64,000 bases of DNA from Paracoccaceae bacterium (GTDB lineage Bacteria; Pseudomonadota; Alphaproteobacteria; Rhodobacterales; Rhodobacteraceae), in NCBI GenBank assembly GCA_013373325.1, contig JABXIA010000057.1, positions 5,896-69,895 on the forward strand, given 5' to 3'. The notes below the pieces were generated by a model. It worked only from the letters and a program-made list of their open reading frames with translations. It was not told the origin of the DNA and searched no databases. Position numbers and translations under genes: made by a program. Of this stretch, positions 1-63,592 are shown piece after piece (the first letter of the stretch is position 1; each line of letters starts with the position of its first letter).

Positions 1-198
1 GCCGCTGCCGCGGCCCGGCCGGCGGAACCGGCGCTGGCCTCCGAAGGCCAACCCCAGGCGGACAACCCGCAGGAGGTGCAGCCCGGCCGCGTCATGCCGC
101 GCCGGGTGCGTCCGCAAGGCGCCAAGCGTACCCCGCGCCCCGGCGCGCGCCGGGATGCGGATCTGGCAGCCCTGCGCAGGGAATTGCTGGAGAGCTGA
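1..198 (+). CDS. 3' end of an unidentified ORF entering from the left edge (Ala/Pro/Arg-rich tail)
   Basis: Frame 1 is open from base 1 to TGA at 196-198, with G/C-dominated third positions. The tail reads ...RDADLAALRRELLES. No family is recognisable. Confidence 0.3.
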   Translation, partial: AAAAARPAEPALASEGQPQADNPQEVQPGRVMPRRVRPQGAKRTPRPGARRDADLAALRRELLES

Positions 199-285
199 AA
201 AAAGAGGCTTGTAATCCCGGGCCCGTTACGGTTGTGAATTGACCTGCGGGCCGGGCGGAACCGGCCCATCAGGCAAGGGCGCATT

Positions 286-651
286 ATGACGGTATCGGAA
301 GAACTGGACAGTCTGCACGCTCAGTTTCCCGCCTGCGGGACGGTGGCCTATGCGGATCTGGCCGCGGGCATGGTGCTGGTGGCCAACAGCCAGTCGCCGC
401 TGGACCGCCATGCGCTGGATGCGCTCTGTGCCCAGGCCGGCTGCCTACTGGGTGAAAACAGCGCGCCGCCCCTCGGGTCCGGCGCGCCTGCCTTTGCGCT
501 GGCGCGGGAGCCGGGCAGGCTGATGCTGGCCTTCAAGTCGCCGCGGCAGCCGACCGATGCGCTTTTGTGCCTTGCGGCGCCGGATCTGGATCTGGGCGCG
601 TTTCAGGCCGCCGCCCGCGACTGCCTGGACCGGATCACCGCAGATGGCTGA
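286..651 (+). CDS. small cytoplasmic protein, Roadblock/LC7 (MglB)-like by sequence pattern
   Basis: 121-aa ORF with no signal peptide. The pattern GTVAYADLAAGMVLVANSQ - helix (HALDALCAQAGCLL) - GRLMLAFKS..DALLCLAAPDLDLGAFQAAARD matches the strand-strand-helix-strand-strand-helix layout of Roadblock domains. The fold assignment is inference. Confidence 0.55.
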   Translation: MTVSEELDSLHAQFPACGTVAYADLAAGMVLVANSQSPLDRHALDALCAQAGCLLGENSAPPLGSGAPAFALAREPGRLMLAFKSPRQPTDALLCLAAPDLDLGAFQAAARDCLDRITADG

Positions 652-690
652 CGGACCGGCGCACCACGACCTTCGAACGGGAATTTCAGA

Positions 691-1479
691 GTGACTCACG
701 ACGACGCAATTGCCGGCAACCTGGCGGCCCTCGGCGCCCGGCAGACCGTGTTCCGGGATGGCAGACGGGTTCTGTCCAACGGGCTGTTCCCGCCGCCGCT
801 GCCCGCCCTGCTGCAGGAAATCGGCACCACGGTGCTGCAGCGGCAGCTGACCTTCCAGGCCGGCGCCAGCGCGCTGTCCTTTGTGGTGTCCGAACGGCGG
901 CTGATGGCGCTGGTCTCTGCCAGCAGCGATCTGGAAGAGGTGCAGCATCTGGCCGGCCAGGGCCTGTCCCATGACCAGCCGGAGGTGCTGGAAGCCGTTG
1001 CCGCGGCCATGGTGCGGCTGGCGCAGGCCGAGGAACCGCTGACGGTTGAGACCGCCTTTGCCGCGCCCGGCGGCAGCCCGGCCGGGCTGGGACTGCCGGC
1101 GGCGATGCTGGAAGAGGTGATGGAGCTGGACCCGGGCGAGCAGGAACGGCCGATGGAATTTTTCATCGAGGCCGCCGCCGGTATGTATTCGGCCTGCCTG
1201 CTGCACGCGGGCGGCGCCTGGCTGGGCGGCGGCGAGGATGCAGCTGTGCTGACTGCGCTGCAGAAGATTGCCGATGCGCAGTGGGACCGGTTCCAAGCAT
1301 CTTATGCCAAACATGCGGCGCTGACAGAAACGCCGCGGCTGATTTCGCTGGGTCCGGTTCTGGACGGCGGCAGCTGTGTGTCGGTTGTCTGGGCGGATGG
1401 CGAATGCGCCCTGTTCGCCCATGGCGAGGCGGATCTGGCCGGACTGCACGGCATCTGGCAGCGGGTTTTCACCCTGTAA
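691..1479 (+). CDS. hypothetical protein; C-terminal half also Roadblock-like
   Basis: 262-aa ORF with a GTG start 40 nt after the previous stop and G/C-rich third positions. The C-terminal segment FFIEAAAGMYSACLLHAGGAWLGGGED...RLISLGPVLDGGSCVSVVWADGECALFAHGEADLAGLHGIWQRV repeats the pattern of the 121-aa protein. The antisense ORF 445-1449 has Arg/Gly/Gln-rich junk composition. Confidence 0.55.
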   Translation: MTHDDAIAGNLAALGARQTVFRDGRRVLSNGLFPPPLPALLQEIGTTVLQRQLTFQAGASALSFVVSERRLMALVSASSDLEEVQHLAGQGLSHDQPEVLEAVAAAMVRLAQAEEPLTVETAFAAPGGSPAGLGLPAAMLEEVMELDPGEQERPMEFFIEAAAGMYSACLLHAGGAWLGGGEDAAVLTALQKIADAQWDRFQASYAKHAALTETPRLISLGPVLDGGSCVSVVWADGECALFAHGEADLAGLHGIWQRVFTL

Positions 1480-1488
1480 GGTGAAAAC
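1465..1488. terminator. 9-bp perfect hairpin between convergent genes (spans the TAA of the 262-aa ORF)
   Basis: GTTTTCACC-ctgtaa-GGTGAAAAC sits in the 39-nt gap between the convergent stops at 1479 and 1519. The U-tract is weak. Confidence 0.35.
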
Positions 1489-1518
1489 CCTTGCTGTTCT
1501 TCCGCAGCTTGGCCGCCT

Positions 1519-2838
1519 TCAGGCGGCGAGCTGCGCCTGCATGTCCCGTTTCAGCTGAAGCAGAATGCTGGTGGCATCAAACAGCGACGTGCCGTCCTGT
1601 TCCACCTGGATCAGCTGAATGAGGTCTTCCGCTTCCGACACCGCGCCGCGGATCTCTGCCAGCGCGTTGCCGCCGTTGCCGCCATACTCCTCGAAATGGC
1701 TGTCCAGCCACTGCACCGACTTCAGGGCAGTACGGATCAGCTGGCTGCTGCTGCCGGTGCCGGTGCTGTCCTGCAGCGCCTGGCCCATGCTGCGCCCCTG
1801 CGCGGACAGGTAGTCCAGCGCCTGATCATAGGCCAGCCGGGCCTCCGGGCTGAGCGCCGCGTCCTGCGGTGCTGCGGAGGCTGCGGCCGCAACAGGCGCC
1901 TGTGCCACGGGGGCAGGGCGGTCCGGTGCAGGTGTTTCCGGCGCAAGCGGAGCGTCCGGCTCTGCCAGGGGGGCCACAGGAGGGGGCGGTGCCGCGGTTT
2001 CCGCAGCAGGGACCGGAGCGGGCGCAGGCGCGTATTTCGCCAGCAGCACACCAGCCTGATCCAGCGCTGCCTGACGCCGCAGCTTCACCTCATGCATGAT
2101 GGCCGAGATCAGCGCCTGCCCGCCGGAACGGCGCAGCCGGTCGCGGTCCACCGTGCCATCAGGCGCCCTTGCGGCCTGTGCCTCCAGCGCGGCCAGCGGC
2201 AGGATGCCGTTGAACTGTTCGGAGGCCGCGTCCTGAATACCGGCCAGCGCGGGGGCAAGCCGGTCCTGGGCCGCCAGCTCATCCGCCTTGGTCACCAGAA
2301 GGAAAGCGCCGTCCTTCATCTGCTCCGGCGCGCGCGCCCAGGCGGCCTGTTCAGCCGGGGTGAAGTCCTGGGTGCACCACAGGGCAATGCCGGTCCGCTG
2401 GGCAGCCCAGGGCACCGCGCGTTCCAGCGCAGAGGCATCCGGCGCAGAAATCTCCAGGAGGCTGATCTGGTTCAGGGCGGGCAGGGGCAGCTGCGCCTCG
2501 GCAAAGACCGCACCCCGGGCCGCCAGCGCGCCGGTGTCGAAACCGGGGAGGCTGAAGCCGCTGCCATCCGCCAGCACGCCGCTGCAGGCCGCGGTTCCGC
2601 CGCCGCTGATCTGCAGGGTGGGCAGCGAGACGCCCGCCGGGATCACCTGGCTGCCCAGCAGCAGGTTGGCGACGCTGGACTTTCCCGACCCGGCCAGGCC
2701 GAACAGGGTGACGGCCACCGGTTTTTCCAGCTGCTCCAGCAGCGTCCCGGTGCCGGACTGCAGGCGGGCAGGGATCCGGCCCTCTGCCAATGCTTGCCGC
2801 AGAGATGCGGCAGCGGCGGCGGTTTCCGCTTGAGTCAT
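1519..2838 (-). CDS. P-loop GTPase with Pro/Ala-rich linker and C-terminal helical domain
   Basis: Walker A/G1 is GLAGSGKS and G4 is LVTKADE ([NT]KxD). The expected G3 region reads LLEISAPD, so there is no clean DxxG. A roughly 60-aa PA-rich linker separates the GTPase domain from the C-terminal domain. The start lies 2 nt after the PP2C stop. Confidence 0.75.
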   Translation of the reverse strand: MTQAETAAAAASLRQALAEGRIPARLQSGTGTLLEQLEKPVAVTLFGLAGSGKSSVANLLLGSQVIPAGVSLPTLQISGGGTAACSGVLADGSGFSLPGFDTGALAARGAVFAEAQLPLPALNQISLLEISAPDASALERAVPWAAQRTGIALWCTQDFTPAEQAAWARAPEQMKDGAFLLVTKADELAAQDRLAPALAGIQDAASEQFNGILPLAALEAQAARAPDGTVDRDRLRRSGGQALISAIMHEVKLRRQAALDQAGVLLAKYAPAPAPVPAAETAAPPPPVAPLAEPDAPLAPETPAPDRPAPVAQAPVAAAASAAPQDAALSPEARLAYDQALDYLSAQGRSMGQALQDSTGTGSSSQLIRTALKSVQWLDSHFEEYGGNGGNALAEIRGAVSEAEDLIQLIQVEQDGTSLFDATSILLQLKRDMQAQLAA

Positions 2839-2840
2839 TC

Positions 2841-3791
2841 CTAACGCCCTTTCCCGGCCAGCCGGACCACCTTGGCATCCTGCTCCGGCAGGGACGGCCC
2901 GTCATAGGAGTTGCTGTTCATGGCCACCACGCGGGTTGCGCTGGCCGATTGGTCGCCCACCAGGTCAACCGGCTTGCGGCGCATCTTGCGGGTCACCGGC
3001 TTGTTGTGGTTGAGCTTGATCACCGCAAAGGAAATGTTGTCCTGATCCGGGTCCGCCAGATCATCCAGCGCCGCCAGCAGCCGTTCGACGATTTCCGCGC
3101 TCTTGCGGCGGCGGTACTTGTGCAGGATCTTCTCGATCCGTGCGTCCTCGAGGAACTGCAGACCGTCGCTGGAGACAACCACCAGGTCGCCGACCTCCAG
3201 CCGGAACGGGGCCTTGGGGCAGTCGGTGCGGGTCACCCTGTCGCCCAGGATGACCGAGGTCAGGCAGTTGCGGTCGGGATGGTCGCGGCCGGCTTCGGCG
3301 TCCAGCAGGCCCGCCTTGACCATCATGTCGATCTGCGGTGCCATCGAGTGGTCCTCGTTCAGCTGCTGCAGCTTGCCGCCGCGCATCAGGTAGAGCGGCG
3401 AGTCGCCGATCGACAGCCAGTACAGGCGGTCCTCGATCATCACCACCGACACCAGGGTCGCGCCCATGCCGCGGACGCTGGGATTGTCCTGGACATATTC
3501 CTGCACGCAGGTGTTGGCCTCTGCCGCGGCGTGGGTCAGGTGATAGGGGATCTGTTTTTCGTACTCGGCGAAGTTGACGCTTTCGAACTTCAGCTTGCTG
3601 AAGGCCTCGGTCACCACCATCTTGGAGGCGACATCGCCGGCCGCGTGGCCGCCCATGCCATCCGCCAGGATGGCCATGCCGATGTCGGTGCCGGCCGGGA
3701 AGTCGGTGATGATGGCGTCTTCCTGGTAGTCGCGCGCGCCCTGGCAGATGGCGGCGGCAACGTCAAAGCGCGGTTCAGGCGATTTCCACAT
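2841..3791 (-). CDS. PP2C-family Ser/Thr protein phosphatase
   Basis: Motifs RDYQEDA, ILADGMGGHAAGDVAS, SIGDSPLYL, VVVSSDGL and DNISFAVIKL are present. The start overlaps the FHA gene stop by 17 nt. Confidence 0.9.
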   Translation of the reverse strand: MWKSPEPRFDVAAAICQGARDYQEDAIITDFPAGTDIGMAILADGMGGHAAGDVASKMVVTEAFSKLKFESVNFAEYEKQIPYHLTHAAAEANTCVQEYVQDNPSVRGMGATLVSVVMIEDRLYWLSIGDSPLYLMRGGKLQQLNEDHSMAPQIDMMVKAGLLDAEAGRDHPDRNCLTSVILGDRVTRTDCPKAPFRLEVGDLVVVSSDGLQFLEDARIEKILHKYRRRKSAEIVERLLAALDDLADPDQDNISFAVIKLNHNKPVTRKMRRKPVDLVGDQSASATRVVAMNSNSYDGPSLPEQDAKVVRLAGKGR

Positions 3792-4593
3792 GTTCCGCCT
3801 CCTGCCCGCCAGCGCTGGTCCAGTTGAAGTCTTTGCCGCAGAGCGCCATGAAACGCAGGGTGGTTTCGCCCAGGCGGATCAGGTCGCCGCTGTTCAGCAC
3901 CTCGTTGCTGATCACCGGCTGGCCGTTCAGGCGCACGATGTTGCTCTTGCCGCCGTGGCCCAGATAGAATTGCGAGCTTTCGGGATCAAAGACGATGGCA
4001 GCATGGTTGCTGCGGGAGATCGCGGTGTCGCCGAAATCCAGCGCAACCGCCTGATCCTCGCCGCGGCCGATGGCCGACATGCCGGCCTTGAGCGTGAAGC
4101 TCTCGCCATAGCCCGGGCCGTCGGCGACCACGATCCAGCCCACCGGGAACTTGGTGTCGCGGGCCGGGGCGGCGGCGCCGGTGCTGTCGAACAGGTTGAC
4201 GACATCGCCGTCGGAGGTGTCAAAGCCGAGGAGGCGGGTCTTGGCGCGGCGCTTGCGGGCCGGGGCGGCGCTGACATGCGCGGTCAGGTCCGGCAGGTCG
4301 CCGCCGGGCTGGGGCATCTGCGCCGCGCCAGCGGGCGGGGCAGCCGGGGCGGCAGGGTCCAGATCCCAGATGCCGGCTGCCGGACTCGCGGCGGGCATGG
4401 CGGCGGTTTCCGGCTGGCTGTCTGCAGCCTGGTCCGCCTGCGGGTCCAGATCCAGTTCCACGGAGCGGGTGTGCTGGGCGACGGCCTTTAGCACTTCCTG
4501 CTGCATCGTCTCGTCTGCGACCTGCAGCCTCTCCATCGGGGCGGGCTCAGAAAGCGGGTCCTGCCGTCCGATAAGTTTTCCGAAAAATCCCAT
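3775..4593 (-). CDS. FHA-domain protein (disordered N-terminus, C-terminal FHA)
   Basis: C-terminal SAIGRGEDQAVALDFGDTAISRSNHAAIVFDPESSQFYLGHGGKSNIVRLNGQPV...GDLIRLGETTLRF shows the G-R...S-x-x-H...N-G spacing of FHA domains. Confidence 0.85.
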   Translation of the reverse strand: MGFFGKLIGRQDPLSEPAPMERLQVADETMQQEVLKAVAQHTRSVELDLDPQADQAADSQPETAAMPAASPAAGIWDLDPAAPAAPPAGAAQMPQPGGDLPDLTAHVSAAPARKRRAKTRLLGFDTSDGDVVNLFDSTGAAAPARDTKFPVGWIVVADGPGYGESFTLKAGMSAIGRGEDQAVALDFGDTAISRSNHAAIVFDPESSQFYLGHGGKSNIVRLNGQPVISNEVLNSGDLIRLGETTLRFMALCGKDFNWTSAGGQEAEHVEIA

Positions 4594-4696
4594 GTCGTCT
4601 GCCTTTTTTTGGTTGTTACAGGCGTCCGTGCAGTCACGGCAGGCGCCCGGTTTTCCCTATCTGCGGAGAGCCGCCCGTCCGCGGCCCCTGCGGCCT

Positions 4697-4724
4697 GCCA
4701 TGCCCCCGCTGCCGGGGGCATGGC
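4697..4724 (-). terminator. 12-bp perfect GC-rich hairpin between the LysM-SBP genes and the FHA gene
   Basis: GCCATGCCCCCG-ctgc-CGGGGGCATGGC lies in the 142-nt gap. No U-tract follows on either strand, so its role as terminator, attenuator or processing site is open. Confidence 0.4.
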
Positions 4725-4735
4725 GGTTGACCGGA

Positions 4736-5833
4736 TCAGCTGCCGATCTTGTTGAACTCGGCCAGGCTGTCGGCGATGATCGCGTACCATTCGCCGCTTT
4801 CGCGCATCTCGTTCAGGCCCTTGTTCAGAAGGGTCAGATAGACGCGGCCGCGCGGGTTGGTCTTATGCGTCACGAAGTGGATCGCCTGCAGCTGCGACAG
4901 GTTGGAGTTCAGCTGCACCTTGCCTTCGGCTTCCGCCACTTCGCGGACTGCGGCATCGCCTGCTTCGAGGTCCAGCAGCGCCATGTCGGCCTCGCCGGTC
5001 ACCAGCTTGCGGATGCATTCAACCGCAGAGGTCGGATGCACAAGGGAGATCACCGGCTCCACCAGGCCTTCGCCGGACAGCTCAGCCAGGGACCAGCCTT
5101 CGGGGCGGCAGATCTTGGCGCCGGCGTAATCCGCATAGTCCTTGACGTTGGCATAGGGGTTGTCGGCCATGGTCCAGTGGGCGGACACCGATTCATAGAT
5201 CGGCAGCGAGAAGTTCAGCTGCGTGCAGCGGTACTTGGTGTCGGCGTCGGTGTTTTCGAGGTTGGAGCAATCCGCCGGCTTGTACCAGGCGATCGACACG
5301 TCGAAGGCGCCCAGCGGCAGCAGGGTGTCGAAGTGGGCCTTCCAGTCGTCCACGAAGCTGAGGTTGTATTCACGGTCGTTGCCGCCGCGGTTCAGTGCGG
5401 TGGTAGCCAGGCGCACCAGCATGCCGCCGCCCTTGAGGCTTTCGCCGGTGAAGGGTTCCCAGCCGTTGCCGGACACCATCTTGATCGGCGGCTCATAGAT
5501 GCTGGACTTGGCCCGCTTGGCCTGTTTTTCCTCTTCCTGTGCGATGATGTCGGTGACATCGCTGTCGGCGGTCAGGCGGCCGTCTTCACAGGGGATCTGC
5601 AGAACGGTGCCGGCCTCCAGGCTGTTGGGGTTGGCAATCGCGTTGCGGTTGGCGTTGAAGATCATCTGATAGTCAAAGGAGCCATAGGCGGCCTGGGCGA
5701 TGGAGCCGAGGCTGTCGCCGTCCTGAACGGTATAGGGGGCACAGGCCTCCTGCGCGGCTGCCGAAGTGGAGATGAACAGGGCGGCGGAAACGGTGGTTGC
5801 GCTGTATTGAACCAGGGATTTGATCATCGACAT
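4736..5833 (-). CDS. secreted LysM domain fused to a family-3-like periplasmic solute-binding domain (paralogue 1)
   Basis: The signal peptide is MSMIKSLVQYSATTVSAALFISTSAAAQ. The LysM segment is YTVQDGDSLGSIAQAAYG...NPNSLEAGTVLQIP. The SBP-like body contains GWEPFTGE...FVDDW...LLPLGAFDVSIAW...FSLPIY...GEWYAII. The start was trimmed to the ATG at 5833, which has an AAGGAA RBS. Confidence 0.8.
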   Translation of the reverse strand: MSMIKSLVQYSATTVSAALFISTSAAAQEACAPYTVQDGDSLGSIAQAAYGSFDYQMIFNANRNAIANPNSLEAGTVLQIPCEDGRLTADSDVTDIIAQEEEKQAKRAKSSIYEPPIKMVSGNGWEPFTGESLKGGGMLVRLATTALNRGGNDREYNLSFVDDWKAHFDTLLPLGAFDVSIAWYKPADCSNLENTDADTKYRCTQLNFSLPIYESVSAHWTMADNPYANVKDYADYAGAKICRPEGWSLAELSGEGLVEPVISLVHPTSAVECIRKLVTGEADMALLDLEAGDAAVREVAEAEGKVQLNSNLSQLQAIHFVTHKTNPRGRVYLTLLNKGLNEMRESGEWYAIIADSLAEFNKIGS

Positions 5834-5915
5834 GAGAGTTAGTTCCTTTTCAATGGGGCACCGCCGTTGCGCAGGGGGCTGCTGGCAGTGGGTCATGGTT
5901 TGTGTTGGGGGGAGG

Positions 5916-7079
5916 TCAGTTGGTGAGGGTTCTGATTTCGCGTTGCAGGGCCTTGGAGACGATGGCGTACCACTCGCCGGAGACGGACATGTCCTTCAGC
6001 CCGCTGTTGAGCAGATCCAGGGTCTCCTGAGCCCGGGGGTGATCCTTGTGAACGATGGCGTGCAGGGACTTCACCTCGCCGAGGTTCGGGTTTTCCTTGA
6101 TCTGGCCGGCCAGGCCCATGGTGGCGAGCGTGTCGCTGGCAACCAGGGTATCAAGGGCGACCACATCCACGGCGCCGGCGGTCAGCGCGGTAAAGCATTC
6201 CGCGATCTGGACCGGGCGGTAGAATTTCACGGTTTGCTCCGTCAGGCCCGCGGTATCCAGATGGGCCATGGAATAGCCCTCGGGGCGGCAGATCCGGGTG
6301 CCCATCAGCGCGTCATAATCAAAGGCGGCGGCATAGGGGCTGCCAGTGGCGGCAAAGAAGCCGTCGACCACTTCATAGAAGGGATCGGAGAAGCGGTAGT
6401 TGTCGCAGCGGAACTTGTCGCCGGCGGACAGCAGGCCGTAGTCGCCGCAGTTGGGCTTCAGCCAGGGGAAGGAGCCTTCGAACGCCATTGCAGGCAGCAG
6501 GGTTTCCAGATGCGATTCCCAGTCGTTGACAAAGGTCACTGAGACCTCGGTCTGCGGCGCGGCGCGCAGGGCGGCGGTTTCGATCAGCTGGGTGAACATG
6601 CCGCGGCCGGGCAGGTCCTCGCCGGTGAAGGGCGGGAAATCATTGCCGGTGATCAGAACCATCGGTTCCGGCGCAGCTGTGGCTGCCGGCGCCTCTGCGG
6701 GCACGGCGTCTGCCGCTGCGGTTTCAGTTGCCGGCGCCTCTGCGGCAGCGGTTTCTGCGGCGGATGCCTCCTGAACCTCCGCTGCCGGGGCTTTGGCTTC
6801 CTGAGCTGCGGGTGCCTCAGCCGGCAGGCTGCCGTCAGCGCAGGGCAGGACCAGCTGCATGCCGATTTCAATGATGTTCGGGTTGCGGCCGATGACAGCG
6901 CTATTGGCGTCGTAGACAACCCGGAACCTGGAATGCCCATAGGCTTTCTCGGTGATTTCCCGCAGGTTGTCGCCGGACTGGACCTCGTACACTTGGCAGG
7001 CTTCCTGAGCCTGGGCAGACTGTCCGGCTGCCGCGATGGCGATCAGGGAAGCCCCCATATATTTAGCAGTATTGCGCAT
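5916..7079 (-). CDS. secreted LysM domain fused to a family-3-like periplasmic solute-binding domain (paralogue 2)
   Basis: The signal peptide ends in AGQSAQAQ. The LysM segment is YEVQSGDNLREITEKAYG...IIEIGMQLVLP. A long A/E/P-rich linker follows, then an SBP-like body (DFPPFTGE...FVNDW...LLPAMAFEGSFPW...FSDPFY...GEWYAIV). Confidence 0.8.
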   Translation of the reverse strand: MRNTAKYMGASLIAIAAAGQSAQAQEACQVYEVQSGDNLREITEKAYGHSRFRVVYDANSAVIGRNPNIIEIGMQLVLPCADGSLPAEAPAAQEAKAPAAEVQEASAAETAAAEAPATETAAADAVPAEAPAATAAPEPMVLITGNDFPPFTGEDLPGRGMFTQLIETAALRAAPQTEVSVTFVNDWESHLETLLPAMAFEGSFPWLKPNCGDYGLLSAGDKFRCDNYRFSDPFYEVVDGFFAATGSPYAAAFDYDALMGTRICRPEGYSMAHLDTAGLTEQTVKFYRPVQIAECFTALTAGAVDVVALDTLVASDTLATMGLAGQIKENPNLGEVKSLHAIVHKDHPRAQETLDLLNSGLKDMSVSGEWYAIVSKALQREIRTLTN

Positions 7080-7181
7080 TAAATCTGTCCTTCGTGGGTC
7101 AGAGAGGCAGAGCTCTCCCGGGGACGGCCGCTGGTGGGGCTGACCGCCTGATGCTTGTGATTGTGGGAATGGCTGGCGGGG

Positions 7182-9116
7182 TTAGCTGTTTCCCGCCAGT
7201 TCCAGGCTGGCTGAGGCCGCGGCCCCGTCGCGCAGGATGTCGAAGGTTGCGGTCGCGGCGCCCTTGTCCTGCAGGCCCTGCAGGATCTCCGCCAGCGACT
7301 CGGCGCCGGCCAGAGCGGTGCCGGTGGCGGATTCACGCAGCAGCACGTCGCCGGGCTGCAGATCCGCGGATCCCTGGGCAGCCTGCTGGCTGACGGAGGT
7401 GACCCAGGCGCCGTCCTGCATCCGCGCCTCGAACTGCAGGCCGCTGTTCAGGCCGGTCCGGCGCACCACCGGAACCGCCAGCAGCCCCATTTCGAACCGC
7501 TTGCTTTCGGCGTCCTTGTAGCGGACGGAGGCGCGGGTGTAGCCGTCGGGGTCGATCTGCATTGCGGTCAGCAGCTGCGATGCGAAGGGCGAGCCCGCTG
7601 TCAGCGGCTGATTGTTGACGGTCAGGATTTCCACGCCCGGAGCAATCCAGCTGCCGGTCTTGCTGAGGTCAGTGGTGTCGCCGGTGCCGGTGATGGACAC
7701 AACCTGCGCCTTGCGGACGGTCTGTTCTTCATACTCGAAAGGGATCGAGACATCCCACAACGCATAGCTGACCTCATGGCCCGCAAAGGGCGCGGGGGCT
7801 GCCGCCGGTTCCGGCTGCGCAGGCTCGGCAACTGCCGCAGTTTCCTCAGGGACGTCTGCGGGGACCGGCTCTGCCGCCTGCACCGCGGGTTCGGCGGGGG
7901 CTGCAGCTTCTGTTTCTGCCGCAGCTGCGACGCTGACCGCTTCCGCGGCCGCAGCAGGGGCCGGATCCGCGGCAACCGGCGCCGGTTCCGCAATTGCTGC
8001 GGTTTCAACCGCTGCTGCGGGCTGCTCTGCCGCTGCATCCTCCTGGGTGTTGCCATAGTAGACGTAGCCGGCAGCGCCCAGACCGGCCACAACCGCCAGA
8101 ACGGAGACGGCCGGAAGGCGGCTGCGCTTCTTTTCCTCATGGACCGGGGCTGCGGTGCTGTTGGCCGCCTGCGGCGCGGCCGCCGCGGGCTTCTTGCCGT
8201 CCAGCATCGCCAGCCAGTCTTCCGCCGATTGCAGGCGCATGGAGGGCTTGGTGTTCATCGCCTTGTCGATGGCCTCCAGGAAGCCCTCGGCATAGCCGTC
8301 CACGGCACCGGCCAGCGGCTCATAGGGGTCGGGGCGCTGTTCGGCGATGGCGACCAGGCGGGCCTGGCCGTTCACCGGCGCCTCGCCGCGGATCACGTGG
8401 TAGAGGGAGGCCGCCAGCGCATAGAGATCGCTGAAGGGGCCCTGTTCGCTGCCGGCAATGTAGAATTCCTGCGGCGAGTAGCCGTCCTTGACGACCCGCA
8501 GCGCAGAATGCTTGCGGCCGTCCTCGCTGGTGTCTTCGCGGGCAGCGCCGAAATCGATCAGCACCGGCTCGCCCTCTGCGGTGAGCAGGATGTTGTCGGG
8601 GGAAATGTCGCGGTGCAGCAGGTTGGCGTCATGCACATACCCGATGGCGTCCAGCAGCTTGCGGGTCATGCTGGTGATCTGGTCCGGGGTCAGAACGGTG
8701 TTCTGATCCTCCAGGATGTCCTGCAGGTCGCGGCCGTCGACATAGTCGATTGCCATATAAGCCGTGTCGTTGTCCTCGAACACCTGATGCACGCCGACGA
8801 TGTTGGGGTGCTTCAGCTTGGACAGGCTCTGGGCTTCACGGATGAAGTGGCGGATGATCGACTTCAGCTCGCTCTGATGCGCCCGGGACCGGGCACTGAC
8901 CAGCGCGTTGGTCCGGCGGCAGAAAGCATCCGCAAAGCATTCCTTGATCACCACCGTCCGGTCCAGGCTGTCCTTGGCAAGATAGGTGATGCCGAAGCCG
9001 CCGTTGTTCAGAAAGCGCGTGATGGTGTACTGGCCGTGGAGCAGAGTTGTGCCCGGCTGCAGATCATCCTGTTGATCCGCGTCAACTGAAGTCTCAACAA
9101 GCGAATTGAGTGCCAT
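7182..9116 (-). CDS. Hanks-type Ser/Thr protein kinase, single-pass membrane, with extracytoplasmic C-terminal domain
   Basis: Kinase motifs are VVIKE (Lys), HRDISPDNILL, DFGAAR and SPQEF. The TM helix is LPAVSVLAVVAGLGAAGYVYY. An A/P/E-rich linker precedes a roughly 200-aa C-terminal region with two PDZ-reminiscent segments (IAPGVEILTVNNQPL and LQPGDVLLRESATG). Confidence 0.9.
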   Translation of the reverse strand: MALNSLVETSVDADQQDDLQPGTTLLHGQYTITRFLNNGGFGITYLAKDSLDRTVVIKECFADAFCRRTNALVSARSRAHQSELKSIIRHFIREAQSLSKLKHPNIVGVHQVFEDNDTAYMAIDYVDGRDLQDILEDQNTVLTPDQITSMTRKLLDAIGYVHDANLLHRDISPDNILLTAEGEPVLIDFGAAREDTSEDGRKHSALRVVKDGYSPQEFYIAGSEQGPFSDLYALAASLYHVIRGEAPVNGQARLVAIAEQRPDPYEPLAGAVDGYAEGFLEAIDKAMNTKPSMRLQSAEDWLAMLDGKKPAAAAPQAANSTAAPVHEEKKRSRLPAVSVLAVVAGLGAAGYVYYGNTQEDAAAEQPAAAVETAAIAEPAPVAADPAPAAAAEAVSVAAAAETEAAAPAEPAVQAAEPVPADVPEETAAVAEPAQPEPAAAPAPFAGHEVSYALWDVSIPFEYEEQTVRKAQVVSITGTGDTTDLSKTGSWIAPGVEILTVNNQPLTAGSPFASQLLTAMQIDPDGYTRASVRYKDAESKRFEMGLLAVPVVRRTGLNSGLQFEARMQDGAWVTSVSQQAAQGSADLQPGDVLLRESATGTALAGAESLAEILQGLQDKGAATATFDILRDGAAASASLELAGNS

Positions 9117-9731
9117 TTTGTTGCTCCCGTCTCAATGTTGTCTGGCCGCTGCGTCTGCTGCTGCCCGCTTCTTGCGTTAATTCTTTGTTAAGCTGATCTG
9201 TTGAGAAACCGGCAACAATAAGGCGCAAAGAGGGAATATTGGCGGAGTGGGATTTTCCGGGCGTTTCAACCGGGCCGGGAAACTTGAGACTCTCAGAGAG
9301 CGAAGAATTTTTTGCGCGTTTTCTCAATGCCTTACTCAGGAAAGCGGCGGTGGAACCGTGGATTGCCTTTGCTGCGGGATTGAAACGCCATTTCAGCGCG
9401 GCGGGGCTGGACAGCTGCGTTTTTCAGCCGGAATCGGGCTTTACGGCCCCTGGAATCGGCCCGCCAATCTGCAATCCGGCCCGCTTGTGAAGTAAAAAAC
9501 CACGCTTTGGTTAACGCTTTCGCAACAATATGCGGCCGGCAGGCAGGCCGCCGCTGCCGCCAAACCCGGCACAGCGGGAGACCGGCAGGCAAGACAACGC
9601 AGACGGGTGCCGGGGCAAAAGTAACATAAACTCTGTTACACGCACCGATTCGTGCGCAGGAGACGCTCCAGTGTCCTGCATGCCTTGTGTGTCCGCCCGC
9701 CGGATATCAGCGGCCAGGAGCCCAAGGCCCC

Positions 9732-10535
9732 CTATTCATTCATCACCAGCGCCGATTGCTGACCTGTCATCCTGCGGACCTCAGACACCGCCTCGGCAAG
9801 GGCTGGTCCGACCTCGTCAAAGATGCGCTGATCCGGCAGCAGTTTTGAGGTCGAGCTTGCCAGAAACGCCACCGGCTCCCCCAGATCGGACGGGCGGTAT
9901 GGCACCGCGGCGGCGTTGATGGTCTCGGAAAACCGGTTTCCGCCCCGCACCTGAGTGTAGCCGTCAGCCAGGATCTCGTCGTGCGCGGCAAGCCGGATTG
10001 CCGCCAGCTCCGCCAGCAATTCTTCCGGCTCACCGCTTTGGCTCTCAAGGAAGCGGGCAAATTCCGCATCGCTGAGCGCCCCCAGATAGGCCTTGCCGCT
10101 GGAGGACGTATGCAGAGGCATCCGGTAGCCCACGTCCAGCCAGATCGCGGATGAGTTCACCGGCCGCCAGGCCTTGGTCATCAGCATCCGCTGGTCATCC
10201 TTGATGCTGATCGCGGTCAAGGTGCCGGTTGCATCTGCCAGCCGCTGCATAACCGGCGAGGCAATCTCGACAAAGGCAAAGGACGCGGCCGCGATGTTCC
10301 CCAGTGCCAGCGCCGCCGGGCCGAGCCGGTATTTATCGTGCCGCCGCCCATGGGTCAGGTATCCAAGCGCGCACAGGGTAAATGTCAGCCGGGACACTGT
10401 CGGGCGCGGAATGCCGGTGCGCTCCGAGATTTCGAGATTGCCCAGGCCGTCATCCGTCGGGCGGAAGGCCCGCAGGATTGTAAGGCCCCGCGCCAGTGTG
10501 TTTGCAAATCTCTTGTCCGATGAATCGGCTGGCAT
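9732..10535 (-). CDS. IclR-family transcriptional regulator
   Basis: The sequence shows LARGLTILRAF...LEISERTGIPRPTVSRLTFTLCALGYL (wHTH) followed by an IclR-type effector domain. The start was trimmed to the ATG at 10535 (MPADSSDK), because the longer ORF would overlap dctM. Confidence 0.85.
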   Translation of the reverse strand: MPADSSDKRFANTLARGLTILRAFRPTDDGLGNLEISERTGIPRPTVSRLTFTLCALGYLTHGRRHDKYRLGPAALALGNIAAASFAFVEIASPVMQRLADATGTLTAISIKDDQRMLMTKAWRPVNSSAIWLDVGYRMPLHTSSSGKAYLGALSDAEFARFLESQSGEPEELLAELAAIRLAAHDEILADGYTQVRGGNRFSETINAAAVPYRPSDLGEPVAFLASSTSKLLPDQRIFDEVGPALAEAVSEVRRMTGQQSALVMNE

Positions 10536-10602
10536 GGTGTTTCCTGTATCTATGCGGGCGTCTGGCCTGCGCGGGGCATCCGCTGTTCGCGCTGTCCCGA
10601 TA

Positions 10603-11943
10603 CTACTGAACCGCATTTGACAGCACCAGAGAGATCGGCGGGAAAGCCACCAGCAGAAGCAGCACAATCACGTCGATGCTGAGGAACCGCCAGATGCCGG
10701 AAAAGACCATGCCGACAGGCGCGTCTTTTCCGACGACATTGGAAAGGACAAAGACGTTCAGCCCCACAGGCGGCGTTATCAGGCCGATCTCCAGCAGTTT
10801 CACCACAACGACCCCGAACCAGATCAGGTTCAGCCCGTAGGATTCCACCAGCGGCACCACCAGCGGCAGGGTCAGAACCATGATTCCGATCGGATCCAGA
10901 AACATGCCCAGCACCAGATAGACCACGCAGATGGCAAACAGCAGCGTCGCGGTCGAGAATTCAGCCTGTGAAACCCAGTCCACCAGCGCCGGGGCCATGC
11001 CCGTCAAGGCGATGGCCGCAACAAATATCTTGGCCCCCGCGGCAACAAAGAAGATCGCAGCGGTCTGCACGCAGGTTTCCCGGACCGCCAGCCAGATGCC
11101 AGCCAGATCAAGCCGCCGCTGCAAGATGCCGATCAGCACAGTCAGCACAACGCTCACCGCCGCGGCCGCCGTGGCGGTGAAATAGCCGCCGTAAATCCCG
11201 ATCACGATCACCGCAAAGATCACGGCAGCGGGCCATGCTCTTTGGAACGCGGCCAGCTTTTCGGCGAAACTGGCCGCCTCTCCGCGGGCCGGGACCGCCG
11301 CCGGGTCCGCCCTGATCCACATCGCAATGACCAGGACAAAACCCGCCAGCGTCAGCAGTCCCGGCAGAATGCCGGCAATGAACAGCTTGTTCACCGAGGT
11401 CTCGGTGAAGATTGCATAGATGATGAACAGGATGCTCGGGGGGATCAGCGAGCCAAGTGTACCCCCGGCGGCGACGCTGGCGGTTGCCAGCCTTGGGTCA
11501 TAGCCAAGGCGCAGCATTTCCGGGGTGCAGATCTTGCCCATGGTCGACGCGCAGGCCAGGCTGGATCCGGTGATGGCGGAAAACCCGCCGCAGCCCATCA
11601 CGGAGGCCACCGCAATCCCGCCGCGCAGGCGCAGCAGCCAGACCTTGGCGGCGTCATAGACCGCTGTGGTGATCCCGGCGCGGTAGGCAATGTTTCCCAG
11701 CGCGATGAACAGCGGGATCATCGACAGATCGAAGGAGTGCAGCAGATCGAACGAATTATTGAAGACCAGCGACGAGGTCGCCCGGAAGGCCCGTTCCGGC
11801 ATGAAGGTGTCCGTGCGGAATGCAAAGATTGTAAAGGCCGCCAGCGTCGCCACGCCGATCAGGGCAAAGGCAATCGGCACACGAATGGCCAGAAGCACGA
11901 GCATGACGGCAAAGGCCACAAGGCCGATCAGGGCAGGATCCAC
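10603..11943 (-). CDS. dctM: TRAP transporter large permease
   Basis: 446-aa polytopic membrane protein of typical DctM length and sequence character, positioned immediately after dctQ. Confidence 0.9.
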   Translation of the reverse strand: MDPALIGLVAFAVMLVLLAIRVPIAFALIGVATLAAFTIFAFRTDTFMPERAFRATSSLVFNNSFDLLHSFDLSMIPLFIALGNIAYRAGITTAVYDAAKVWLLRLRGGIAVASVMGCGGFSAITGSSLACASTMGKICTPEMLRLGYDPRLATASVAAGGTLGSLIPPSILFIIYAIFTETSVNKLFIAGILPGLLTLAGFVLVIAMWIRADPAAVPARGEAASFAEKLAAFQRAWPAAVIFAVIVIGIYGGYFTATAAAAVSVVLTVLIGILQRRLDLAGIWLAVRETCVQTAAIFFVAAGAKIFVAAIALTGMAPALVDWVSQAEFSTATLLFAICVVYLVLGMFLDPIGIMVLTLPLVVPLVESYGLNLIWFGVVVVKLLEIGLITPPVGLNVFVLSNVVGKDAPVGMVFSGIWRFLSIDVIVLLLLVAFPPISLVLSNAVQ

Positions 11944-11984
11944 GGACAGTCTCCTCGGCAGGTCTATTGAATGTCAGATCGGTG

Positions 11985-12482
11985 TCAGGTCTTGTGCAGC
12001 GCGATCACACCGCCGCGCAGCAAGGTCAGCGCGTCGCCTGCAGCCATCACCGCAAGCCGCAGCCATCCCAGCGCAATCCCGATGGTAAAGGCCAGCCGGC
12101 CCGGCCACTGCGGCAGGTTCAGATCGCCGTAAAACACGCTGCCGGTCTGCCACTGATGCAGGAATTCCCGGCCGCCGGAATAGAGGATCGGCGTCAGCGC
12201 CAAGAGGCCGAACAGGGTGCCGGACACCGTCAGCCAGCCGGTCACGCGCGGCGGCAGAAGATTGGTCAGAAACTCCACCGCAATATGCGCCCGCTGCGCG
12301 GTTGCGGCGGCCAGGGGCATCACAATCGCCAGGACCATCAGCTCGCGCACGATGACAATCGTGTCCGGCACCGAACTGCTGAACAGGTTCAGCGCCACGA
12401 CATCGGCAAAGATCAGCAGCGCCAGCAGAATGATGGCCGCCGCCGATATATCCACAAAAACCCGCTCCAGCCTGTGCAGCAT
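11985..12482 (-). CDS. dctQ: TRAP transporter small permease
   Basis: Roughly 166-aa protein with four TM segments, located between dctP and dctM. The start was trimmed to the ATG at 12482, which follows a GGGAGGA RBS. The longer ORF would overlap the dctP stop. Confidence 0.8.
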   Translation of the reverse strand: MLHRLERVFVDISAAAIILLALLIFADVVALNLFSSSVPDTIVIVRELMVLAIVMPLAAATAQRAHIAVEFLTNLLPPRVTGWLTVSGTLFGLLALTPILYSGGREFLHQWQTGSVFYGDLNLPQWPGRLAFTIGIALGWLRLAVMAAGDALTLLRGGVIALHKT

Positions 12483-12543
12483 CTTGTCCTCCCTTGGATT
12501 TGCCAGGCGGCGCTGCCGCCGCCCGGCCTCTGTTTCGCACAGA

Positions 12544-13614
12544 TCAGTTACTGCGCGTCCAGGGATACCCCTTGGCTTCAAACTCGGCGGTGAATTCAGC
12601 CACCGCCGCGGTATAGGTTGCCATCAGCCGGTCCGCATCCAGACCGACGCTGCGGGCGTTTTCCATCCAGTCCGCAATAAAGGGTTCTGCCGCCGCATTC
12701 AGTGCTGCCTTGTCAGCATCGCTCAGCTCGATGACCTCGATCTTGCGGGTGGTTTCGCCTGCGGTCATCGCCTTCATCGCCTTGCTGTTGGCCCCGGTCA
12801 CGATCTTGGCAAACTGGTCCGCCAGTTCCTCGCCCGCCTGCATCAGCACCTGCTGCTGGCCAGCCTCCAGGCTGTCATAGACCTGCTTGTTCATGAACAT
12901 GCCATAACCGCCGATCTGCCCCCAGTTCAGGACGGTATAGCTGTCGATCACCTCGTCCCATTTCAGGGAGGGCACAATGTAGTCATAGCCCTGGCTGCAA
13001 TCGATCAGCCCGGTGTCCAGCCCCTGATACGCCTCATAGACTGATAGGTTCACACGGGTTGCGCCCATTTCGCCGAACACCTTGCCGTAAACGCCCGCGC
13101 CGCGGACCTTCTTGCCCTTGATGTCCTCAACCGAGCGGATCGGATCTCCGGCGCAGGCGACATTGACGGCCGAGGCCGTGAAGGTGCCGATATAGACCAG
13201 GTTCTGGCTGGCCAGATGCTCGGTGATCTGGGGTTCTGTCCGCATCAGACGGTCGGCTGCCCGCATGGCGACCCAGGCATTCGGCCCGCCGATGGGGAAG
13301 TCCGCCAGCGAATAGGCCGCCATTTCCTTCTGGAAATAGGCTGCAATGATCGAGCCTGCATCCGCCACCCCGTCGCTGATCCCCTGCACCGCAGCGCTTG
13401 CCTTGAACAGCGCGCCGCCCCATTGAACGTCCAGCCGCAGATCGCCGTCCGACAGCTCGCCAATACGGCTGTTGTACCACTTCAGTGCGGCAGGAACCGT
13501 GCCTCTGTCCGGGCCGCTGTGGCCGTAGTAAATCACGGTCTCCGCAGAGACCGCCGTCGCACCAAGGCTGGCCGCAAGGGTCAGCCCTCCCAGAAAATTC
13601 TTGATCATTCCCAT
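12544..13614 (-). CDS. dctP: TRAP transporter solute-binding protein (DctP family)
   Basis: The signal peptide is MGMIKNFLGGLTLAASLGATAVSA, followed by a DctP-like mature protein. The start at 13614 is preceded by GAGGAGGAGA. Confidence 0.85.
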   Translation of the reverse strand: MGMIKNFLGGLTLAASLGATAVSAETVIYYGHSGPDRGTVPAALKWYNSRIGELSDGDLRLDVQWGGALFKASAAVQGISDGVADAGSIIAAYFQKEMAAYSLADFPIGGPNAWVAMRAADRLMRTEPQITEHLASQNLVYIGTFTASAVNVACAGDPIRSVEDIKGKKVRGAGVYGKVFGEMGATRVNLSVYEAYQGLDTGLIDCSQGYDYIVPSLKWDEVIDSYTVLNWGQIGGYGMFMNKQVYDSLEAGQQQVLMQAGEELADQFAKIVTGANSKAMKAMTAGETTRKIEVIELSDADKAALNAAAEPFIADWMENARSVGLDADRLMATYTAAVAEFTAEFEAKGYPWTRSN

Positions 13615-13655
13615 GACTGGTATCTCCTCCTCGAAAGCCATCGCAAGTTTTACTA

Positions 13656-13706
13656 TGTGGAATTTTAAACTTCTGTCTAGAATTTTATTCCACATATTGG
13701 AATTTT
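13656..13706. promoter_or_regulatory. AT-rich operator-like array upstream of dctP: three (G/A)GAATTTT boxes with exact 20-bp spacing plus an 8-bp inverted repeat
   Basis: GGAATTTT is at 13659, AGAATTTT at 13679 and GGAATTTT at 13699. TGTGGAAT (13656-13663) is the inverted repeat of ATTCCACA (13687-13694). The array stands out in high-GC DNA. Confidence 0.4.
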
Positions 13707-13788
13707 GGAACATCTGCCCGCTTGCGGCCCGCAGCCAGCAGGACCGGCGCCGGTGCTTCGCTGCAGGCGGGGCAGCTGGCGCAACAGA

Positions 13789-15309: not shown

Positions 15310-15332
15310 GTCTTTCCTCCTCCCTTGCAGGG

Positions 15333-16337
15333 TCACGCCGCCAGACCGAGCCGCCCGAATGCCGCCAGCGCCTCAGCCTCAAGCCGGGCGGTGATTTCGG
15401 CAAAGGGCTCCACCTTGTCGACGAACCCCAGCGCGTGGCCCGCCGACAGCAGCCCGCGGGAGACGTCACCAGTGGCATAGGCCTGGCGCCCGATCTTGCC
15501 GGACACATGCTTCAGCAGCTCCTGAATGCCGATCTCCGGATTGTCGCGCTCCAGCCTGGCCACCGTTTCTGTGGTCTGGTTGCGCAGGCTGCGCACGGTG
15601 TTGCGCACCGAGTGCATGGTCAGCTGCGTGTCCAGCTCGCTCGCATTCACCATCGCCTGCTTGTAATCCGGATGCGCGGTCAGCTCGCTGGCAACCAGGA
15701 ACCGGGTGCCTATCACCACGCCCGCCGCGCCCATGACCAGCGCCGCCATGATCTGCTTGCCGTGCCCGATGCCGCCGCCAATGAGCCAGGGGATGGTCAG
15801 CCGGTCCCCGGCCAGGCCTGCGTTGACCATGCTGCCAACCATGTCCATGCCGGGATGGCCGCCGCATTCGGCGCCGACAATCGACACCATATCAACCCCC
15901 ACCTGCTCCGCCTTCACCGCATAGCGCAGGCTGGGCACCTTATGCAGCACGGTGATCCCCGCATCCTTGAGGATCGGCATGAACGCCTCGGGGCTGCGGC
16001 CGGAAGTTTCGGCAAACTGCACGCCCTCCTCCGCGATCAGGCGGAACACCTCTTCGGTTTTCTCGCCCGGCACCAGCTTGGGGATCATCGAGACATTGAC
16101 CCCGAAGGCCTTGCCCTCGCACATCTCGCGGCAGCGGCGGATCTCGGTGCGCAGATCGTCCAATTCGGGAAAACTGGCGGCGGTGATGAACGAGACAATC
16201 CCCGCCCGCGCCGCAGCCGATACATATTCGGCATTGGCCAGCCATTGCAGGCCGCCCGCCACAACCGGCAACCGGGTGCCATAGGTCCGGGTCACGGCTG
16301 TATCAAAAATCGCCGGAAGCGCAGAAGTGTGCATCAT
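15333..16337 (-). CDS. nitronate monooxygenase / FabK-like FMN oxidoreductase
   Basis: The sequence contains PVVAGGLQWLANAEYVSAAARAGIVSFI and GGIGHGKQIMAALVMGAAGVVIGTRFL. The start was trimmed to 16337 (AAGGAG RBS). Confidence 0.85.
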   Translation of the reverse strand: MMHTSALPAIFDTAVTRTYGTRLPVVAGGLQWLANAEYVSAAARAGIVSFITAASFPELDDLRTEIRRCREMCEGKAFGVNVSMIPKLVPGEKTEEVFRLIAEEGVQFAETSGRSPEAFMPILKDAGITVLHKVPSLRYAVKAEQVGVDMVSIVGAECGGHPGMDMVGSMVNAGLAGDRLTIPWLIGGGIGHGKQIMAALVMGAAGVVIGTRFLVASELTAHPDYKQAMVNASELDTQLTMHSVRNTVRSLRNQTTETVARLERDNPEIGIQELLKHVSGKIGRQAYATGDVSRGLLSAGHALGFVDKVEPFAEITARLEAEALAAFGRLGLAA

Positions 16338-16347
16338 GTCGGTCTCC

Positions 16348-17549: not shown

Positions 17550-17552
17550 ATC

Positions 17553-18683: not shown

Positions 18684-18697
18684 GTCGCCTGCCCCCG

Positions 18698-19894: not shown

Positions 19895-19907
19895 CGCGTG
19901 GTGCCCC

Positions 19908-63512: not shown

Positions 63513-63592
63513 GGCGGGCCTCCGGGAACGGGTTCGCGGCTGGCGGGGTGCGTGCCGCGTTCTTCAGTAGATCATCTGCGCCGGCGGGCGCC

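Follow-up and report, generated by a model that had tools for sequence, protein, structure and literature searches.

What does a serine/threonine phospho-signalling triad control when its genes stand beside a P-loop GTPase and two small proteins without a family assignment? This question is raised by the left end of a 64,000-nucleotide stretch (hereafter the window) of Paracoccaceae bacterium contig JABXIA010000057.1 (assembly GCA_013373325.1), where genes for a Hanks-type kinase, a PP2C-type phosphatase and an FHA-domain protein neighbour genes for a 439-amino-acid (aa) GTPase (G439), two secreted fusions of LysM and solute-binding-protein (SBP) domains (SBP1 and SBP2) and two proteins of 121 and 262 aa (r121 and r262). 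A sequence-only reading had proposed a distinct pathway, outside all known contexts of such triads, in which LysM-SBP proteins inform the kinase and the output controls a GTPase/Roadblock switch. We found that immediately beyond the left edge of the window there are genes for two dynamin-family proteins, DLP700 and DLP309, that G439 carries a dynamin-type G domain as well, and that the eight core genes are strictly co-conserved. With a probability of about one half, the cluster encodes a threonine-phosphorylation-gated, hetero-oligomeric bacterial dynamin module for membrane remodelling, with Roadblock-type regulators and, in Leisingera, an envelope-sensing input. The features of the locus are as follows.

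1–198, plus strand: 3′ end of the gene for DLP309, a short dynamin-family GTPase (frame +1 translation; 96% nucleotide identity to the gene for a 309-aa Dynamin_N protein in locus L001)
286–651, plus strand: r121, a 121-aa protein of Roadblock/LC7 fold (AlphaFold2 and Foldseek)
691–1479, plus strand: r262, a 262-aa protein with two tandem longin/Roadblock-like alpha/beta domains (AlphaFold2 and Foldseek)
1463–1490, no strand: perfect palindromic hairpin of 11 bp, candidate bidirectional terminator (highest-ranked site of a terminator scan)
1519–2838, minus strand: G439, a diverged G-domain protein of dynamin type, DLP2/LeoA subtype (family profile against PDB, hhalign)
2841–3791, minus strand: PP2C-type Ser/Thr phosphatase, the putative eraser (PP2C_2 and Stp1/IreP-type PP2C matches)
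3775–4593, minus strand: FHA-domain protein, the putative phospho-threonine reader (FHA profile match)
4736–5833, minus strand: SBP1, secreted LysM and solute-binding-protein fusion, accessory and lineage-specific (LysM match, signal peptide)
5916–7079, minus strand: SBP2, secreted LysM-like and solute-binding-protein fusion, accessory and lineage-specific (matches below cut-off, signal peptide)
7182–9116, minus strand: receptor Hanks-type Ser/Thr kinase (Pkinase match, hydropathy scan)
9117–9731, no strand: stretch of 615 nt, poor in open reading frames (ORFs), upstream of the kinase operon, presumed promoter or regulatory region (short low-quality ORFs only)

Dynamin-type and Roadblock-type proteins

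The left edge of the window splits a plus-strand operon, of which bases 1–198 retain the C-terminus of DLP309. The part beyond the edge was read from L001, a contig of Leisingera sp. SS27 (96% identical), and from a complete repABC plasmid (71.7 kb) of Leisingera sp. S132. In both, the operon runs DLP700 (a dynamin-family protein of 700 aa), DLP309, r121 and r262. That no known context is present, as the sequence-only reading had held, was thus an artefact of the window edge, since the operon of r121 and r262 continues directly beyond that edge with two dynamin-family genes. No type VI secretion system (T6SS), divisome or histidine-kinase genes were found on the Leisingera plasmid, and no T6SS structural genes were found in the plasmid homologue of the window or in the 47 loci described below with their 10-kb flanks.

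Family profiles were compared with PDB sequences. The best match of DLP700 was the dynamin-like protein (DLP) DLP1 of Campylobacter jejuni (5owv_A, 3e-12), followed by the bacterial dynamin-like protein (BDLP) of Nostoc; DLP309 and G439 both matched C. jejuni DLP2 best (5owv_C, at 3.5e-17 for DLP309 and at 9.4e-11 over aa 14–224 for G439). The Dynamin_N scores of DLP700 (1.6e-10) and DLP309 (2.2e-11) were above the gathering threshold, the GKS/T, DxPG and (N/T)(K/R)xD motifs are invariant in their family alignments, and the DLP309 orthologue of Leisingera sp. S132 is named ‘dynamin family protein’ by the Prokaryotic Genome Annotation Pipeline (PGAP). The two genes share 4 nt in L001 and S132 and adjoin in all complete loci. 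DLP700 is full length; its G1–G4 motifs are canonical, and close to where BDLP has its paddle it carries a conserved segment rich in Trp and Arg. The C-terminal tail of DLP309 (∼85–111 in the frame of window bases 1–198) carries a conserved basic motif, RVMPxRVRP, with P277, R279, V280 and P282 invariant or nearly so, which may be a docking or lipid-binding peptide.

The sole Pfam match of G439 was a weak one to the P-loop of Dynamin_N (0.0075, 16.8 bits against a cut-off of 27). Its G domain aligned with the DLP309 family in hhalign at 99.6% probability (E 1.7e-23), which identifies G439 and DLP309 as paralogues. G439 consists of an N-terminal G domain (∼aa 1–270), a Pro/Ala-rich linker of 170 aa and a conserved helical C-terminal domain of ∼100 aa. 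Of its motifs, G1 (GxxGSGKS) and G4 (TKAD) are kept, as is the G2 Thr, and G3 (DxPG) is replaced by LLE(I/V)... A Ras-like small switch GTPase was also considered for G439 and ruled out by its best PDB match, its paralogy with DLP309 and its linker and helical domain. Nor is support left for the switch proposed from the sequence, a small GTPase with Roadblock partners resembling MglA/MglB or the conservon, as G439 has a dynamin-type G domain and is a paralogue of the neighbouring short dynamin.

The two small proteins, r121 and r262, matched no sequence family in Pfam or NCBIfam, including Robl_LC7. The profile search with r121 gave 220 homologues, none of them named, from which the inputs of its model were taken; a 39-sequence r121 profile had no match at E ≤ 10 among PDB sequences. 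The AlphaFold2 model of r121 (pLDDT 86) has the topology a-b-b-a-b-b-b-a, and Foldseek returned 83 PDB matches at E ≤ 1e-3. At their top was the Streptomyces Roadblock/LC7 protein 3kye (TM-score 0.76–0.79), and Asgard Roadblocks, MglB (TM-score ∼0.70), the C-terminal domains of RagA/C and LAMTOR proteins were found further down. For r262, the model (pLDDT 92, pTM 0.83) comprises two alpha/beta domains, of which the leading Foldseek matches were Fuzzy-Inturned, Mon1-Ccz1, p14/MP1 (probability 1.0, TMt 0.53–0.59) and again 3kye, none at E ≤ 1e-3. An exhaustive search gave 189 cluster representatives of r262, nearly all of 250–275 aa, and hhalign detected no sequence relation between r121 and r262. 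The guess that both small proteins are of Roadblock type therefore stands for r121 by its fold match, and for r262 a Roadblock/longin-like fold is plausible only.

Co-conservation, phospho-signalling genes and envelope input

We surveyed one genome per species with a G439 alignment and two restrictive peptide patterns, by which 47 loci were obtained as a lower bound; Ruegeria pomeroyi DSS-3 and two metagenomic contigs were added by exact-protein look-ups, and gene content was assigned by iterative searches with hidden Markov models on the ORFs of each locus. All 47 loci were from Rhodobacterales, with genera including Leisingera, Yoonia, Marivita, Gemmobacter, Shimia, Silicimonas, Boseongicola and Marinosulfonomonas. 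The eight core genes (kinase, FHA, PP2C, G439, DLP700, DLP309, r121 and r262) adjoin in 36 loci, and the other 11 run into contig ends. Of the 36 complete loci, 29 have the genes in this same order on a single strand, and two more keep the order with extra or split genes; the usual form of the cluster is one co-directional operon with a soluble kinase. In Leisingera, R. pomeroyi (CP000031.2, 1,110,767–1,124,522) and locus L005, the DLP700-DLP309-r121-r262 block is inverted, which gives the convergent layout of the window, and in Gemmobacter the kinase gene and one SBP gene have been relocated to the far end of the cluster. Because adjacency outlasts these rearrangements while the flanking genes vary from genus to genus, we regard the cluster as a discrete, strongly co-inherited module, of which DLP700 and DLP309 are obligate members. 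The expectation that the neighbourhood is conserved was borne out for all eight core genes wherever enough DNA was available, with the LysM-SBP genes outside this core.

In the Silicimonas/Boseongicola clade (L017–L052; for example L051, Silicimonas algicola, 15795–20503), the operon lies between a thymidine kinase gene upstream and mreB-mreC-mreD-pbp2-rodA immediately downstream, an adjacency that could be clade synteny or a functional hint.

Related variants were found by tblastn of DLP309 against plasmids. On its plasmid unnamed4 (L056, NZ_CP083557.1, 5357–14454), Leisingera sp. S132 has the entire cluster a second time as a paralogous copy, which is of the canonical one-strand type and encodes a soluble kinase. 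The G439 homologue of this cluster is labelled ‘zeta toxin family protein’ by PGAP, which, given its match to the G439 profile at 9e-80, looks like a P-loop-driven misannotation. The megaplasmid of Ruegeria sp. AD91A (L057/L059, NZ_CP031947.1, 255312–271248) has an expanded cluster with four dynamin genes that form two DLP1/DLP2-type pairs, in the order DLP670, DLP586, r121-like, r262-like, DLP680 and DLP428, after which come a kinase that has the same ectodomain, then FHA and PP2C, and lastly two homologues of the LysM-SBP proteins. Because the G439-type DLP428 of AD91A keeps a canonical DLPG G3 motif and stands beside its own DLP700-type gene as a normal dynamin pair, the best interpretation of G439 is that it was the DLP2-type member of a second pair, lost its partner and diverged. 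On a plasmid of Rhodobacter sp. CZR27 (L058, NZ_CP023549.1, 817–11267), four dynamin-family genes stand in a row, and after them come genes for a sensor histidine kinase, for a DUF6781 protein and for a UbiB-type kinase; r121 and r262 had no match at this locus, which may be a differently wired relative.

The kinase, phosphatase and FHA calls made from the sequence, with intact key motifs, were upheld by profile searches and translations. The kinase matched Pkinase at 3e-32 with VIK, HRDxxxxN and DFG readable in the translation; the phosphatase matched PP2C_2 at 3.8e-11 and Stp1/IreP-type PP2C at 5.5e-44 with the metal-binding Asp motifs DGMGGH, GDS, SDG and DN; and the FHA protein matched FHA at 3.1e-7 with the GR...SxxH...NG recognition motif. 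These three genes adjoin in the complete loci, the exceptions being Gemmobacter, where the kinase gene is at the far end, and Leisingera, R. pomeroyi and L005, where SBP genes lie in between. The FHA protein has a disordered N-terminal part with a near-invariant motif, R-x-K-T-R-L-L-G-F, ∼30 aa before the FHA domain, the Thr of which is kept in 46 of 48 distinct homologues. By analogy with GarA and OdhI, it is plausible that this Thr is both a target of the kinase and a self-binding site. In the clade with soluble kinases (L017, L019, L027, L045, L047, L049 and L051), the FHA protein is ∼600 aa long with long acidic low-complexity stretches, and these homologues share a conserved internal segment, SRRRSAMAHLKAAAAATKADRVL...PYRDDLAKVVRP, which is missing in the Leisingera FHA protein.

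The kinase of the window has a cytoplasmic kinase domain, one transmembrane helix (aa 334–352, hydropathy scan), a linker rich in Pro and Ala and, in the periplasm, a tandem PDZ-like domain of ∼200 aa, in agreement with the membrane-receptor kinase suggested earlier. The ectodomain profile matched the PDB chains of DegP/DegQ and of the RseP PDZ tandem weakly (0.003–0.5). In Pfam, PDZ_2 was matched by five of eight ectodomain members and PDZ_6 by three (best 8e-5), consistently but below threshold. This combination of helix, linker and ectodomain was found only in the SBP-bearing lineages and a few others (Yoonia, L014, Shimia and Marivita), and in the large Silicimonas/Boseongicola/Marinosulfonomonas clade the kinase is ∼440 aa long with no transmembrane segment.

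Both SBP proteins have a signal peptide visible in the translation and are named ‘transporter substrate-binding domain-containing protein’ by PGAP in S132. The SBP1 ORF extends over 4736–5896, with the likely start at 5833, before the signal peptide, as PGAP annotates the S132 orthologue. That the two are LysM-SBP fusions was upheld in part. LysM passed its cut-off in SBP1 (7.2e-7, 29.5 bits against 20.9), while the LysM match of SBP2 (NCBIfam PRK11198, 1.1e-6, aa 20–79) and the SBP_bac_3 matches of both proteins (0.0019 in SBP2, with TIGR01096 at 5e-5) remained under their cut-offs. Among the 47 species loci and the added loci, LysM-SBP genes were found only in Leisingera, R. pomeroyi, L005 and Gemmobacter, and they accompany only the kinase-ectodomain subtype with the ALWD..PFEY..IDPDGYTR signature. 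They remain beside this kinase in the rearranged Gemmobacter cluster and in the paralogous AD91A cluster, as the proposed association would have it. A functional link between the SBP proteins and the kinase is supported because the SBP genes track one ectodomain subtype and stay beside that kinase when clusters are rearranged. The LysM-SBP genes and the periplasmic PDZ-like domain are nevertheless lineage-specific additions rather than core elements, and periplasmic sensing could not be kept as the heart of the pathway, given that in most loci the kinase is soluble (∼440 aa) and SBP genes are missing.

The window covers ∼64 kb of a circular plasmid of ∼72 kb, as both of its ends (20–18279 and 63590–64000) match the 71.7-kb repABC plasmid of S132, where the right end maps ∼9 kb upstream of the left-end match. 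The ∼8.6 kb that the window lacks carries, in S132, genes for a universal stress protein, for an ABC exporter of RbbA type with an HlyD adaptor, for a cytochrome c and for DLP700, and also the larger part of DLP309. The plasmid cargo consists of metabolic genes (nitrate assimilation, BCKDH, TRAP transporters and paa). Within the cluster, all eight ORFs of the window were exactly where the sequence-only reading had placed them, with 17 nt shared by FHA and PP2C and 2 nt between PP2C and G439. The hairpin lies inside the 39-nt convergent gap, overlaps the stop codon of r262 and is 29 nt from the end of G439. No sigma-70-like promoter or Rfam family was found in window positions 1–10000. In S132, PGAP places a hypothetical protein of 126 aa across the start of the kinase gene; its counterpart in the window is a 77-aa ORF with a TTG start (9094–9327), which looks spurious.

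Proposed function and its alternatives

Machines such as H1-T6SS assemble under the control of kinase/PP2C/FHA triads, and Roadblock proteins are regulators of GTPases. Most bacterial dynamins are encoded as operon pairs and are active only together as hetero-oligomers, and DynA, IniA and Cj-DLP1/2 have been tied to membrane stress or repair (PMC6104087). In the model that we favour, the three dynamin-type proteins would come together at the inner membrane in a hetero-oligomeric complex that is driven by GTP and remodels membrane, as other paired bacterial dynamins do. The kinase would write phospho-threonine marks, which would be read by the FHA protein, itself probably switched through its conserved KTRLL Thr in the manner of GarA/OdhI, and erased by PP2C to reset the switch. 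The FHA protein would thereby gate the assembly or recruitment of the dynamin complex, with r121 and r262 serving as a dimeric platform or as a regulator of the dynamin G domains resembling GTPase-activating proteins or guanine-nucleotide exchange factors (GEFs). In the Leisingera/Ruegeria version, the kinase would have gained its transmembrane helix and periplasmic tandem PDZ-like domain and two secreted, peptidoglycan-binding LysM-SBP proteins would have been added as co-sensors, so that envelope or periplasmic/peptidoglycan cues would trigger the response. The most likely physiological role is to repair or remodel the cytoplasmic membrane when the envelope is under stress. The narrower proposal that the Roadblock/longin-fold proteins and the Ser/Thr phospho-switch directly regulate dynamin-superfamily GTPases, in an envelope-damage or membrane-dynamics response of marine Rhodobacterales, is possible but tentative.

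Several observations weigh against this model, in which every step beyond the joint encoding of the proteins is inferred. We know of no case that joins Roadblock proteins to dynamin-family GTPases, and every Foldseek E-value for r262 was above 1e-3. Both DLP309 and G439 are without the neck and trunk of canonical dynamins, and G439 with its degenerate G3 may not hydrolyse GTP. In a scan of the dynamins and Roadblock proteins, the conserved Thr-x-x-(L/I/V/D) sites all looked structural or catalytic and no phospho-acceptor site was identified on the dynamins, which leaves the KTRLL motif of the FHA protein as the sole substrate candidate. On the input side, the PDZ and SBP_bac_3 assignments fall under curated thresholds, and since the kinase is soluble in most loci, envelope sensing cannot be the general input.

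A regulator of cell-envelope growth or morphogenesis, in which the triad and the dynamins would adjust how peptidoglycan is made or how the membrane invaginates as cells elongate or divide, instead of repairing damage, has precedents in the actinobacterial PknB/PstP/FhaA cluster and in Streptomyces DynA/DynB at the divisome, and LysM domains bind peptidoglycan. The operon also stands directly upstream of mreB-mreC-mreD-pbp2-rodA in ∼20 loci of the Silicimonas/Boseongicola clade, where its chromosomal position is stable as for a housekeeping gene set. We down-weighted this adjacency as elongasome evidence because it is limited to one clade in which both flanks are syntenic, with tdk on the other side, and it may reflect shared descent only. 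Given that the cluster is on a repABC plasmid in Leisingera, has unrelated neighbours in R. pomeroyi, Yoonia, Marivita, Gemmobacter and Shimia, and, unlike core morphogenesis genes, is absent from many Rhodobacterales and present in two copies in some strains, we consider such a role unlikely. Somewhat less likely still is an anti-phage or abortive-infection system resembling LeoA/LeoBC (‘Dynamins’) or B. subtilis DynA under a Ser/Thr kinase that senses infection. Dynamins are a reported defence family (bioRxiv 10.1101/2022.05.11.491447), DLP700 had weak PADLOC matches to LeoA (2.4e-9) and LeoBC (1.1e-5), the kinase domain matched the defence kinases PD-T4-6 and mad6, and in Leisingera and Ruegeria the cluster is plasmid-borne with paralogous copies and variable architectures. 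These PADLOC matches are, however, partial and of generic dynamin and kinase homology (P-loop only for DLP309), and the other six proteins matched no defence model. The neighbours are metabolic or housekeeping genes and not defence islands, and the chromosomal synteny conserved over many species of the main clade is atypical for defence systems.

The remaining alternatives dispense with membrane remodelling or with dynamins altogether. If the dynamin-type proteins were nucleotide-state sensors, set by phosphorylation and the Roadblock-type proteins and docking on another effector, the lack of trunk and paddle in the truncated or G-domain-only DLP309 and G439 and the degenerate G3 of the latter would be accommodated. 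RdcA/RdcB acting on DgcE is an example of a bacterial dynamin homologue with a small partner that serves as pure signal input (PMC6510439), and the CZR27 variant couples four dynamins to a histidine kinase. This signalling-only arrangement is improbable in view of the full-length DLP700, the canonical G motifs and Trp/Arg-rich segment of which fit a membrane-active dynamin, and no downstream effector gene is conserved beside the cluster across genera. A dynamin-independent circuit in which kinase-to-FHA output controls a small P-loop GTPase/Roadblock switch, as originally envisaged from the window, would agree with the superposition of r121 on MglB and with the co-conservation of the genes. 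We consider it highly improbable, as G439 is dynamin-type and not Ras-like, r121 and r262 are co-transcribed in this window with DLP700 and DLP309 and not with G439, and two dynamin genes are obligate in the cluster.

Known systems and significance

We compared the cluster with characterised systems that share parts of it. By profile matches, DLP700 is of DLP1/BDLP type and DLP309 and G439 are of DLP2/LeoA type, as in the C. jejuni DLP1/DLP2 pair (PDB 5OWV) and other pairs, and the overlapping DLP700 and DLP309 genes lie side by side in one operon as do those of paired bacterial dynamins (PMC6104087); the other operon-paired DLPs compared were Nostoc BDLP1, B. subtilis DynA, Mycobacterium IniA/IniC and Streptomyces DynA/DynB. 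Unlike these pairs, the cluster has three dynamin-type proteins, two of them cut down to a G domain and tail and one with a degenerate G3, and is obligately tied to kinase, FHA, PP2C and two Roadblock-type genes. The LeoABC (‘Dynamins’) set of enterotoxigenic Escherichia coli is likewise a three-gene dynamin set with shortened or split members, the LeoA and LeoBC models of which were weakly matched by DLP700, but it has no kinase, FHA, PP2C or Roadblock gene, and the model matches of the cluster are partial and without a defence-island context. The E. coli RdcA/RdcB (YjdA/YjcZ)-DgcE system also uses a dynamin homologue and a small accessory protein as a regulatory input (PMC6510439), with a single dynamin and no phospho-signalling genes.

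The signalling genes have counterparts of their own. In the H1-T6SS pathway of Pseudomonas aeruginosa, PpkA, PppA and Fha1 together with periplasmic TagR and TagQST gate a membrane-associated machine upon envelope perturbation. Like that pathway, the cluster combines a Hanks-type receptor kinase that has a periplasmic domain with a PP2C phosphatase, an FHA adaptor and dedicated periplasmic helpers; its output is a dynamin set, its ectodomain is PDZ-like and not vWA, and its helpers are LysM-SBP fusions. GarA/OdhI and PknB/PstP/FhaA resemble the cluster in the conserved T-x-x-L Thr just N-terminal of the FHA domain and in the adjoining kinase, PP2C and FHA genes, but there is no orthology past the FHA domain (NCBIfam matches far under cut-off) and the cluster is without RodA/PbpA or metabolic-enzyme partners. 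Roadblock/longin-fold proteins are encoded or assembled with GTPases in Myxococcus MglA/MglB, conservon CvnB/CvnD, Ragulator-Rag and Mon1-Ccz1, in line with the superposition of r121 on MglB, 3kye, LAMTOR proteins and Rag C-terminal domains and the resemblance of r262 to multi-longin GEF subunits. In those systems the GTPases are of the Ras, Rag or Rab type, whereas those of the cluster are of the dynamin family and its small proteins have no sequence-level membership of Robl_LC7; RdcB is, to our knowledge, not known to be Roadblock-like.

The 121-, 262- and 439-aa proteins are annotated as hypothetical by PGAP in S132, and no curated model in Pfam, NCBIfam or PADLOC covers their families. In the full-text literature, with subscription journals outside the coverage, we found no description of the cluster and nothing that joins bacterial dynamins to kinase/FHA/PP2C genes or to Roadblock proteins. 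We rate the cluster as bacterial dynamin operons with previously undescribed regulatory wiring.

The triggers and control of bacterial dynamins are largely obscure, and the cluster offers a hard-wired candidate circuit for them, with a phospho-threonine writer, eraser and reader together with Roadblock-type partners. Its presence in the genetically tractable R. pomeroyi DSS-3 makes the question of control directly testable, and the 121-, 262- and 439-aa families would acquire a functional context. If the proposed wiring is true, the partner range of Roadblock/longin proteins would widen from small GTPases to the dynamin family, and marine Rhodobacterales would possess a prokaryotic machine that joins three elements of eukaryotic trafficking, namely large GTPases, longin/Roadblock regulators and kinase control.

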